From assembly GCA_963697335.1 (NCBI GenBank), contig CAVONQ010000009.1, positions 20,413-84,412 of the forward strand: a stretch of 64,000 bases of DNA. The letters run 5' to 3'. The translations under genes and the position numbers were made by a program. Positions 61,523 to 64,000 of the stretch are shown here, piece by piece. The notes beneath the pieces were generated by a model. The model was not told where the DNA came from, ran no database searches, and saw only the letters and a program-made list of their open reading frames with translations. Every line of letters starts with the position of its first letter. The stretch's first letter is position 1. Source of the DNA: an uncultured cyanobacterium (lineage in GTDB: Bacteria; Cyanobacteriota; Cyanobacteriia; PCC-6307; Cyanobiaceae).

Positions 61523-61939
61523 GGAAAAGATCACGTTGGTACGCTTGGGTGAAGACGCGTGGTGCGTTGTCGTGGTGAATCCGTCCATCATCGCGCTTGA
61601 GATCTCCATCACTCCACTCTGCCTAAGGTTAATCGGGGGGTGTGGGGGCAGATCAGATCGCCAGCGTTGCGGGCCTCGCTGAGCAGCTGGGGCCGCAACA
61701 GATGCACCGCCTTGCTGCCCCAGCGCTGGAAGGGCTGCGCCCCGCAGGCGCATGCCCAGGCTGAGCAGCATTGGATTGGTACCGCGGTAGCGGCGTGCCA
61801 TTCCCGTCGCAACGGCGTGGTGCCTGCCCCCAGCAGCGTGATCAGGGAATCAACAGCCACGGTTGACCTAGGGAGGCTCTGGAAAACCCGAGCCATCCGC
61901 GCGAAAATATCCCTGTAATCGCAGGCGCGGACTGGGTTC

Positions 61940-62944
61940 ATGGGCAGCAAGCAGCTCGGATTTGGCGATTACGAGCAGACCACGGCCAAGAAGCGCACGA
62001 GGCGCGAGCGTTTTTTGGCCGAAATGGAGAAGGTGGTGCCGTGGAAAGCGCTGATTGATCTGATCGAGCCCCACTATCCCAAGACCAGCTCCAAGGGTGG
62101 TCGCCCGCCCTATCCGCTGGCAACCATGCTGCGCATCCACCTGCTCCAGCAGTGGTACGACCTCAGCGATCCAGCGATGGAGGATGCGCTGATCGAGGTG
62201 CCGACGATGCGCCGTTTTGCAGGGATCGACATGATCAGTGACCGGATTCCTGATGAGACCACGATTCTCGCGTTCCGGCACTTGCTGGAGAAGAACGATC
62301 TCGGCAAACAGATCTTTGAGGTGGTCAAAGCCCACCTCAAGGCCAACGGCATGGCGATGAAGCAGGGCACGATCATTGATGCCACCTTGATCGCGGCGCC
62401 CAGCTCCACCAAAAATAAGAAGAAGGAGAGGGATCCGGAGATGCACCAGACCTGCAAGGGCAAGCAGTGGTACTGTCGGGATGAAGGTCCACAACCGCTA
62501 CGCGGAAGCAAGGGCTACGGCGTGGATAGCGAGAGCGGCCTCATCCACTCAGTGGAAACCACAGCTGCCAATGTGCATGACCTAACCCCAGCCTCTGATC
62601 TCCTGCACGGAGAGGAGACCCTGGTCTATGCAGATGCCGGCTACCAGGGAATCGAGAAGCGAGACGAGATGAAAGGCCGTGGGATCGGCTTCCGCGTCGC
62701 CATGCGACCCGGAAAGCGCCGAGTGCTGCCGGATACGCCGGAGGGTCGACTGGATGATCTGGTCGAAACTGCCAAAGCGCATATCCGCGCCAAGGTCGAG
62801 CATCCGTTTCGGGTGATCAAACAGCAGTTCGGCTTTCAGAAGACCCGGCTGCGGGGAATGCTCAAGAACCGCTGCAAAGTGAATGTGCTGGTAGCCCTCT
62901 CGAACCTGTTCATGGCACGTCGCAGGTTGCTATGCAGTACGTGA
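61940..62944 (+). CDS. IS5 transposase, locally scrambled by an extra base and a 24-nt insertion
   Basis: GRPPYPL; IPDETTI; IIDATLI; YADAGYQG; RAKVEHPF; FGMKVHIGVD is replaced by CRDEGPQPLRGSKGYGVD. Confidence 0.88.
   Translation: MGSKQLGFGDYEQTTAKKRTRRERFLAEMEKVVPWKALIDLIEPHYPKTSSKGGRPPYPLATMLRIHLLQQWYDLSDPAMEDALIEVPTMRRFAGIDMISDRIPDETTILAFRHLLEKNDLGKQIFEVVKAHLKANGMAMKQGTIIDATLIAAPSSTKNKKKERDPEMHQTCKGKQWYCRDEGPQPLRGSKGYGVDSESGLIHSVETTAANVHDLTPASDLLHGEETLVYADAGYQGIEKRDEMKGRGIGFRVAMRPGKRRVLPDTPEGRLDDLVETAKAHIRAKVEHPFRVIKQQFGFQKTRLRGMLKNRCKVNVLVALSNLFMARRRLLCST
62494..62517 (+). repeat. 24-nt double-hairpin mini-insertion
   Basis: A-CCGC-TAC-GCGG-A-AGC-AAGG-GCT-A interrupting an inferred ATC codon. 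Confidence 0.6.
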
Positions 62945-63116
62945 TCAGGGGATCAGTGTGCCTGTCGAGGGAAAGAATCGGCCAACATGGGCAGATCTTG
63001 GCACCCGAAAGGGTGAAATCAGGCCAAGCCAACCTCAGATTCGCCAGAAGTTGTTCATTCCGAGCAAATTGCAACCTCGGACCCTCTTTCAGGGCTCGTT
63101 ACCCAGAGGCTCCCTA

Positions 63117-63385
63117 GGAGTTTGTTGCCAATAGAGCAGCGAGCCCCTGGCTACGATGAATCGTGGCTGAGGTGAATCCCAGCGACACTATTCTTCTGCC
63201 GAGCGGTTTCTTTCAGGCGGGTTTGAGTCAGCCCTGGCCGCTCTTGCTAGGTCCGTTGCCCTTCATTTCGTTGCTGCCGCCAGCGCCTGCCGCTGTGATC
63301 TCCGGAATCTGTACTATTTGAGCAGGTTGTGCGTGGCAGCGATCAGGTGCCATTCACCATCAATCTTGTCCAGCCCCCGCAGAAT
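63117..63385 (-). mobile_element. 3' remnant of an IS1182-family element
   Basis: LRGLDKIDGEWHLIAATHNLLK*YRFRR resembles the IS1182 transposase C-terminus; cut by the ISAs1 end; terminus abuts CTAG. Confidence 0.6.
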
Positions 63386-64000
63386 CAGGGCTGATTCAAA
63401 GTCTCTCAGGAAGAGTTGGCTGCCGGTTGCCGCTGCGCCATGGCCAACAGCGCTGTGATGTCGTGGCAGACAGCCTGCATCCCTGAACGGATGGACTGAA
63501 AGCCGCCCAGTCGCAGCAGGTTGAGAGCGGCTGTCCGCAGCGTCGCCAGCTCTCAATGCTCCAGCGATCCCGCACCAGTTTCAGCAGGGCTTCTGGGGTG
63601 GTGCGCAAGCTGGTGAGGAAGAAATGGGTCTGCCGGAAGGTCTTGCCGTCGCGGGTCCCGACGGCGGCCATCTCCACAATCCAACTGGTGCCGCTCCAGG
63701 CCTCACGGATGTGCTCCGGTGCCGCTTTGGCGCGGAACGTCCAGGTGATGGCACGGCCGTGGCTGATCTCATGATCCGTTGCCACCAAAGGGATGTGGCG
63801 TTTCCCCTGGAACTGGCAGCGGATCTGACGGTGCAGTGTCTTTTGGTTCCTCTTAACGGTCAGGAGGAAGTCGGCCCCCTGCTCGGTGAGCTGTTGAAAA
63901 AGGTTTCTGGGTGTGGAGAGCAACTCCTTCGGAGAAGGCTTCGCCTACCGCCTGGATTAGTACCCCCTCCAGGTCGAGCTCGCCCAGCAGCTGTTTCAGC
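63386..64000 (-). mobile_element. Degenerate ISAs1-family element (frameshift, deletion, mini-insertion); runs off the window
   Basis: End CAGGGCTGATTCAAAGTC; IQA..ALHTQ, GADFLLTVKRNQ, HGR, RDRWSIE; ATLRTAALNLLR in another frame. Confidence 0.82.
63923..63947 (+). repeat. 25-nt double-hairpin mini-insertion
   Basis: A-CTCC-TTC-GGAG-A-AGGC-TTC-GCCT-A replacing the middle base of the Asp codon in QADALH. Confidence 0.65.

Follow-up and report, generated by a model that had tools for sequence, protein, structure and literature searches.

The small dispersed repeats SDR4, SDR5 and SDR6 of Nostoc and its relatives, reportedly described by Elhai et al. in 2008 (Genome Res 18:1484), keep a conserved fold with compensating changes and reportedly lie in period-7 heptamer tracts. 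How these small dispersed repeats (SDRs) are mobilised has stayed unexplained since 2008, according to the statements on this point in papers that cite the work (PMC5861425, PMC4390886, PMC13756078). SDR5 is named there as "21-nucleotide" (PMC13756078), its entry into HIP1 is placed between the third and fourth bases (PMC4390886), and SDR-like repeats are reported, in the part of PMC5861425 that deals with them, to be absent outside the Nostocaceae. Here we analyze two short double-hairpin segments, e1 and e2, inside two transposase genes in a 64,000-nt stretch from an uncultured cyanobacterium of the Cyanobiaceae (contig CAVONQ010000009.1 of assembly GCA_963697335.1, positions 20,413 to 84,412; hereafter the window). 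The genome to which the window belongs (G000; 2.58 Mb, 98.8% complete, G+C about 68%) and its relatives were searched for similar segments, which probably represent a non-autonomous micro-element moved in trans.

Results

Each copy replaces a single T

Each copy of the element replaces one T, with a net gain of 24 nt and no target duplication. The T replaced by e1 belongs to an Ile codon, ATC (KVH-I-GVD), in an IS5-family transposase gene, to which e1 is in sense orientation; e2 is antisense to an ISAs1-type transposase gene on the minus strand, and its site is the T that pairs with the A in an Asp codon, GAT (IQA-D-ALHTQ). For e2, an empty copy on contig C7 of the same genome reads GCGCA-T-CTGCCTGGAT, translated LIQADALHTQ, and the window has the 25-mer in the place of that T. 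For e1, a distant IS5 paralogue on contig C5 has the empty site CAC-ATC-GGC, and where contigs from three public sequencing runs span it, the alignment opens exactly 24 gaps (8 mismatches over 874 nt, 8 over 501 nt and 34 over 1,214 nt). The original prediction, made from the letters of the window, had held that each segment stands for the T of an ATC and had looked to intact insertion sequence (IS) copies for the empty sites; both expectations were borne out for both window elements.

The bridging contigs lack 1 nt at position 62475 (in all four runs compared) and 23 nt at e1, and since these gains of +1 and +23 sum to +24, the IS5 open reading frame (ORF) of the window stays open. The e1 copy is the 25-nt element minus one C in its second stem, and the 25-nt form stands at the same site in a decayed IS5 copy that is 85% identical (G000:C18:166294). 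Directly before its element, this copy (G000:C18:166292) is without 19 nt that correspond to window 62474-62492; compared with the element-free copies the loss is 18 nt, in frame. The two filled copies thus both preserve the local frame, through different indels. At e2 the ISAs1 frame reads VGEAFSEGV in place of the Asp present in the C7 copy. As had been claimed, the Asp codon of QADALHTQ is removed without a shift of the frame; judging from the DDE motif, this Asp may have been catalytic. An exact second copy of either the e1 or the e2 string was found nowhere in the genome.

Beyond the window, 141 alignments among the fetched loci set a filled copy against a homologue without most of the element. 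Inspected empty homologues show TTC, TTG, ATC or TTT where the filled sequence shows x-[25 nt]-C/G, and the differences in the next base in some pairs are read as probable ordinary divergence, the homologues being 70-80% identical. The element is present or absent between homologous sequences even at 97-99% identity, and the junctions are base-exact in 70 unique 25-mers. Because the net gain is 24 nt, reading frames survive; the stop (TAG) is met in one of the six possible frames of the element.

Part of the IS5 stretch was contained in 20 of the 24 public runs listed, from 11 studies of sediment, soil, macroalgae and marine samples. Given these runs and the empty contigs of 97-99% identity, near-identical IS5 copies without the element circulate widely. 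The contigs from RNA runs that span the IS5 site have no element and differ in 8 and 34 letters; we read them as probably other IS copies, so that they are uninformative on removal of the element from RNA. The ISAs1 site was spanned by no contig of the public runs. In a sediment contig, the part that does not align, immediately ahead of window position 61966, contains an element-like 25-mer whose stems have one mismatch, and a marine-sediment contig terminates in 9 letters that match the 25-nt form of e1.

A family with a conserved fold

Ten copies from the genome were aligned (consensus ACTGCTnCGCAGAAGCCTGCGGCTA), and a covariance model, R1, was built from this alignment. On the genome R1 found 12 copies with 24.5-42.1 bits (E <= 7.7e-4), separated by a clean gap from the next-best match at 17.4 bits. 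Both window strings are present as claimed, and R1 recovered the same coordinates for them (Table 1). The family consensus is A-C[Y][S]C-NNN-G[S][R]G-A-AG[S]C-NNN-G[S]CT-A, which gives the architecture A-hairpin-A-hairpin-A with 4-bp stems. The shared architecture of e1 and e2 was seen correctly; the statement that they differ in sequence needs correction, the positions AC..C...G..GAAG.C...G.CTA being common to both.

A genome-wide structural search, proposed at the outset as a check, yielded 16 strict matches to the architecture (A-stem4-loop3-stem4-A-stem4-loop3-stem4-A). Seven of the 16 have the family letters and nine are unrelated; second-order Markov simulations (n = 8) gave 0-4 strict matches, with a mean of 1.75. 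A relaxed regular expression allowing 2 errors returned 371 matches, nearly all of them noise, and gained only two decayed copies on contig C17.

The prediction that the stems covary proved right. Across 95 R1 matches (72 distinct rows, eleven genomes), in an alignment fitted to R1 and thereby biased toward pairing, the pair cells were standard in 96.7%, and two-sided changes occurred in 64 pair cells, where shuffling gave 19.6 and none of 500 shuffles reached 64. Controls in which the structure was slid along the alignment dropped to 11-48% paired. The 70 unique 25-mers have Watson-Crick pairs at 542 of 560 positions and conserve the three single A's in 66 cases. Their stem types swap freely: stem 1 is mostly CCGC (24), CTGC (21) or CTCC (17), stem 2 mostly AGCC (40), AGGC (15) or AGAC (4), and most combinations of these three by three types occur. 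The loops are mostly TTC or TGC, and all four loop pairings were met (15, 12, 12 and 11 times). Wobble states on the element strand number 4 for G-T and 2 for A-C.

A search of the genome for half-elements gave 46 matches to the first hairpin and 13 to the second, and no hairpin pair in it frames a candidate autonomous element. Two of the second-hairpin look-alikes sit within IS91 transposase genes.

A short insertion motif

The flanks were studied in 92 matches from G000 and ten further members of the genus, that is, the 95 matches minus the three weakest. One of them lies at a contig end without a flank, and the rest were grouped by flank likeness into 54 sites, one of these clusters merging two unrelated sites. 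The insertion motif over the 54 sites is C-[T/A/C]-T-[C/G]-[G/A]. Position -2 is C at 41 sites; position -1, which directly precedes the lost T, is T at 31, A at 13, C at 10 and G at none; position +1 is C at 35 and G at 18; position +2 is G at 30 and A at 19; and position +3 has a weak bias to G (29). No clear bias was observed across these sites beyond +3 and -2. Since only -2, -1, +1, +2 and weakly +3 are biased, the long stretch that the two window flanks share, CA-T-C-S-GC-S-TGGAT, is not a family rule. The CATC(G/C)GC context, at first taken as the rule for the site, has accordingly to be given up in favor of a far shorter one. The target T was predicted to be unpaired with P = 0.70, compared to 0.63 in motif-matched controls; the difference had p = 0.047 under DNA parameters and was not significant under RNA ones.

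Genomic location and effect on the carrier genes

Annotation of the 54 sites by Pfam and NCBIfam assigned 37 to transposases, to a group II intron, or to genes of the toxin-antitoxin and nuclease-like kinds. Transposase ORFs of the IS3, IS5/IS1182, IS630, IS256, IS481, ISAs1 and Mu-like types contain or adjoin 26 sites. Four are at one group II intron, three of them in the ribozyme part and one 3 nt before the apparent 5' end, and seven are in DUF3427, Uma2, DUF2887/DUF4351, nucleotidyltransferase or DUF4357 genes. At 17 sites there was no family match, and none of the 54 matched a housekeeping family. The location originally described, in transposases, thus applies to 26 of the 54 sites when those directly beside such ORFs are counted, the intron and cassette-type genes being hit as well. 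The intron carrier on G027:C123 has an ORF with RVT_1 and GIIM and matches to Rfam D1-D4 and D5/D6.

All 12 copies of the window's own genome lie in a transposase, cassette-type or HNH-like gene, HNH being recognized by eye at a gene with no Pfam match. Six of these copies are in toxin-antitoxin-type arrays, at G000:C17:33000-40520 and in a stretch of contig C6. By eye, the array genes are DUF433/PIN-like, nucleotidyltransferase/HEPN, Doc and MazF-like, interleaved with repeated 3' fragments of DUF3427 and with a ..PLMLMELLG.. module. Such an arrangement is reminiscent of an integron cassette array or of displaced gene ends stacked together.

Counted by hand over the ORFs with a family match, the orientation relative to the host gene is antisense in about 27 copies and sense in about 14. 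The sense frame reads like YCFAEAFGY, and one antisense frame begins with TAG and ends the protein, as was seen in an IS630, an IS3 orfA and the HNH-like gene. An IS256 ORF with a full-length family match (349 bits) runs through its element, and the same element is present in four identical IS3 copies of one complete genome. From the long ORFs and the four-fold IS3 it follows that the element does not always stop its carrier.

Distribution and a 22-nt relative

Of 31 other genomes of the genus, 29 gave R1 matches (1-19 copies per genome), as did one of five genomes from other genera of the family. Among 151 evenly sampled genomes of the class, the 25-nt form was detected in G000 and in one genome of the same family (11 matches); a third same-family genome of this sample gave a single weak match of 24 bits. 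A motif scan with one genome per species gave at least 124 loci. Cyanobacterial records made up 74 of the 80 matches listed, mostly Cyanobium, freshwater Synechococcus, Vulcanococcus and 'Prochlorococcaceae'. The other 6 among the 80 listed have proteobacterial or unspecific names and may be either mis-binned contigs or real non-cyanobacterial occurrences. The viral contigs of the whole collection contained one match.

In the 151-genome sample, 16 genomes from 10 further cyanobacterial families contained a relative of 22 nt (23 nt in some copies). It has the same first hairpin and the same central GAAG as the 25-nt form. The majority of its copies are located in long tRNA gene arrays, where all inspected copies have the flanks ..GGT-[element]-C(A/G)A..CC. 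These GGT-[element]-CRA flanks indicate that the element occupies the place of T55, the second T in the T-loop sequence GGTTCRA, and the context T-[T]-C is common to the T55 inserts and the elements of the genus. ARAGORN called two element-bearing tRNA genes (96 nt) and missed others, which leaves gaps in the arrays. An almost invariant insert at T55 is present in many tRNA genes of the arrays of G046, G049, G073, G086, G104, G122, G138, G173 and G186, and the same tRNA genes bear it across arrays of different families. For such arrays, the relevant passage of PMC8421152 mentions that 3 of 26 array tRNAs went undetected, and it describes a co-regulation with RtcB.

Seven further, dispersed copies of the 22-nt relative were found in one large cyanobacterial genome. 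At least four of them are flanked by period-7 repeats, which Tandem Repeats Finder confirmed in both cases tested. The net gain of the relative is 21 nt, equal to the length by which SDR5 is named (PMC13756078). On these features the relative is probably one of the Nostoc SDRs. The kinship with Nostoc SDRs suggested in the original prediction is thus backed by a relative that lies partly within period-7 tracts.

Features of the window and candidate genes in the genome

The coordinates in the window are given in Table 1. The IS5 transposase matched NF033581 (IS5) with 311.5 bits (cut-off 140), DDE_Tnp_1 with 86.9 bits and DUF772 with 78 bits. The ISAs1 remnant reached 66 bits against NF033564, with a cut-off of 70, as a fragment; it is frame-broken and extends past the end of the window and of the contig. 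Copies related to it were found on contigs C3, C7 and C6 of the same genome.

Table 1. Positions of the two element copies and of their host insertion sequences in the window.
Feature	Position	Strand	Details
Element copy e1	62494..62517	+	24 nt; R1 covariance model 30.9 bits, coordinates exact
Element copy e2	63923..63947	+	25 nt, both hairpins intact; R1 37.4 bits, coordinates exact
IS5-family insertion sequence, host of e1	61868..63117	+	Terminal inverted repeats and transposase ORF
IS5 terminal inverted repeats, 15 nt	61868-61882 and 63103-63117		Read from sequence
IS5 transposase ORF	61940-62944	+	334 aa; open through e1
Extra base relative to near-identical public IS5 copies	62475..62475	+	Alignment to contigs of public runs
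ISAs1-type transposase remnant, host of e2	63396..64000	-	ORFs; NF033564 fragment match

A mobilizing nuclease, which the original prediction had hoped to find, was looked for in the genome and none was detected. The genome has no match to PF01797 (Y1/RAYT); a control search found PF01797 in 6 of 14 known genomes. Two copies of an IS91-family transposase, 99.1% identical, are on G000:C16 and G000:C2:1-2456 (351 bits). Both adjoin a tyrosine recombinase, and the copy on C16 also has a full integron-type integrase next to it. This integrase (G000:C16:4656-5732) scored 465.8 bits with a cut-off of 265. It was found in 24 of 31 relatives of the genus (E <= 1e-20) and is missing from both element-free genomes and from 5 of the 29 carriers. 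Kinship among the genomes and the amount of accessory DNA confound the comparison, so that the integrase is a lead only.

Discussion

The two segments are copies of a 25-nt, two-hairpin micro-element of picocyanobacteria, which is probably non-autonomous, moved in trans and retained where its insertion does no harm. The folded single-stranded shape would be the feature that is recognized, and the enzyme acting on it would be encoded outside the element. This enzyme may cut on either side of one exposed T and join the folded 25-mer in its place. Insertion itself would be unaimed; in compact genomes, a selection filter would leave the copies where eight additional codons or a stop cost nothing. 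Spare tRNA arrays and heptamer tracts could be the tolerated places in other cyanobacteria. That the net lengths are 24 and 21 nt, and that a stop occurs in a single frame, suggests adaptation to residence within genes.

Several observations speak against this explanation. No mobilizing gene was found, and Y1 transposase, TnpB, reverse transcriptase and RtcB were all undetected in the 98.8%-complete genome. Dependence on IS91 was considered and rejected, its transposase being present in 7 of 32 genomes of the genus (G000 included) and elements in 30 of 32. By folding prediction, the targets are not convincingly in hairpin loops more often than motif-matched controls. In several cases, homologous sites have different stem variants in different genomes, which needs repeated hits, conversion between copies or compensatory change. 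A filter also predicts intergenic or pseudogene copies outside mobile elements; none were seen, with 17 of 54 sites unannotated. Finally, a motif of such low information should give the genome a very large number of candidate sites, yet all 12 copies are in mobile or cassette-type genes, a pattern that fits a filter and targeting equally well.

A broader account would be a so far undescribed DNA or RNA joining reaction, with a host-encoded enzyme in place of a transposon-encoded one, that swaps an exposed T or U for a folded two-hairpin module of 22-25 nt and may target mobile or spare DNA. It would explain the Cyanobium elements, the Nostoc SDRs and the T55 inserts together, and we consider it a tentative possibility, with the odds rather against it.

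An origin at the RNA level is unlikely. The 25-mer would be joined into transcripts at an exposed U, for instance in a UUCG-like loop or at UUC in a T-loop, and reach the genome by reverse transcription and recombination. This would suit the relative at U55 of tRNA T-loops, a classic RNA motif, as well as the one group II intron with three copies and a fourth just 5' of it. The lack of target duplication was likewise brought together with such a route in the account of fungal double-hairpin elements (PMC2800124). It would also suit the few G-T wobble states on the element strand (4 against 2 for A-C), but these counts are too small to assign a strand. The orientation of the copies, about 27 antisense against about 14 sense and one of each in the window, is at odds with insertion into transcripts; so are hosts that are insertion sequences without an RNA stage, and a genome in which reverse transcriptase and RtcB were not found.

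A repair event, by which short-patch synthesis mends a break at a T from another copy through 2-nt flanks (CT...CG), would require no dedicated enzyme. The conserved flank letters are indeed those adjoining the element, one base is lost, and stem and loop variants are freely combined, as might be expected if copies often exchanged short tracts by conversion. However, the flanks are too variable for a fixed microhomology (T, A or C at -1; C or G at +1), the junctions of the 70 unique 25-mers are base-exact, and stems that pair so strictly suggest that it is the fold that is recognized. Copying-in by repair therefore seems quite improbable.

Similarly improbable is a host system that plants the element in transposons, introns and cassettes in order to disable them, comparable to fungal repeat-induced mutation. 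All 12 copies of the genome are in transposase or cassette-type genes, none of the 54 sites is in a housekeeping family, and some copies hit key residues such as the ISAs1 Asp or create an in-frame TAG. Against such a purpose, long transposase ORFs remain open (IS256 with 349 bits, IS5 with 311 bits), an element-bearing IS3 has multiplied to four identical copies, two compensating 1-nt changes keep the IS5 frame of the window, and the relatives in tRNA arrays and simple repeats are not in comparable invaders.

That the segments are chance hairpins or ancestral parts of the transposases, as the frequency of 4-bp stems at about 68% G+C and the 9 of 16 strict matches outside the family might suggest, can practically be dismissed, since empty homologues of both window copies refute it and 12 family members stand apart by a score gap, with 16 architecture matches against a simulated mean of 1.75.

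With the trans-mobilized, folded micro-element as the preferred explanation, the finding matters in several ways. These micro-elements are non-coding, yet their placement is base-exact, reading frames are kept, and the fold persists while the letters drift. For the question of mobility they are cleaner material, since they come from small, well-assembled genomes with exact pairs of filled and empty sites, among them one of 99% identity. Further assets are a defined lost base, a short motif and a clear contrast between mobile and core DNA. T55 of the array tRNA genes is a second, very uniform class of targets on which candidate enzymes can be tested. In annotation, the element accounts for eight-codon oddities and in-frame TAG codons in transposase and cassette genes of the Cyanobium type.

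Comparison with known systems

The element is not a miniature inverted-repeat transposable element (MITE), as its ends, AC.. and ..CTA, are not inverted repeats, and one T is lost without duplication. An attC site of an integron consists of a single long, imperfect hairpin (about 55-140 nt) whose ends are RYYYAAC/GTTRRRY; the element has 25 nt, two 4-bp hairpins and the ends AC.. / ..CTA. A palindromic element derived from IS200/IS605 was set aside too, neither Y1 TnpA nor TnpB being found in the genome. IS91, a family with rolling-circle transposition, targets GTTC or CTTG. The targets here are often GT-T-C, CT-T-G or CT-T-C, and as with IS91 there is no duplication; however, IS91 removes no target base.

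Rickettsia palindromic elements, of about 100-150 bp, belong to another phylum and are found in housekeeping genes too; they share with the element that they are selfish palindromic DNA lying in frame within protein genes. Repetitive extragenic palindromes (REP/REPIN) are short palindromic units also thought to act as folded single strands. At the 35 of 54 sites with C at +1, the element and this flank base read GTAG, the tag of REP sequences, on the reverse strand, although the G of GTAG belongs to the flank. REP/REPIN are extragenic and associated with RAYT, whereas at least 33 of the 54 sites here are in or beside family-matched ORFs. The double-hairpin elements of Allomyces mitochondria, reportedly described by Paquin, Laforest and Lang in 2000, are said to be longer than the 25-nt element. 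As far as the text of PMC2800124 treats them, they likewise have two hairpins, lie in genes and RNA genes without flanking duplication and are suspected to be mobile, but they are organellar, more variable and of unrelated sequence, and for these an RNA intermediate has been put forward.

Literature searches on SDRs and on hairpin repeats in Cyanobium transposases turned up no description of such elements in Cyanobium. The closest likeness is with the SDRs of Nostoc, with two differences. SDR5 is described as entering HIP1 between bases (PMC4390886), whereas the element replaces a T; and SDRs are restricted to heterocystous cyanobacteria, with none found outside the Nostocaceae, in the account given in PMC5861425, whereas the 25-nt form is found in small, G+C-rich picocyanobacteria. 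Taking that statement as it stands in PMC5861425, the element is probably a well-defined SDR variant, with a precise junction rule, from a lineage previously reported to have none. Both are dispersed and without coding capacity (21-27 nt in Nostoc; 25 nt, or 24 nt when decayed, here), both are present or absent between homologous sequences and lie inside other repeats and mobile DNA, and both keep their fold, which in the element is reflected in 96.7% paired cells and 64 cells with double changes.

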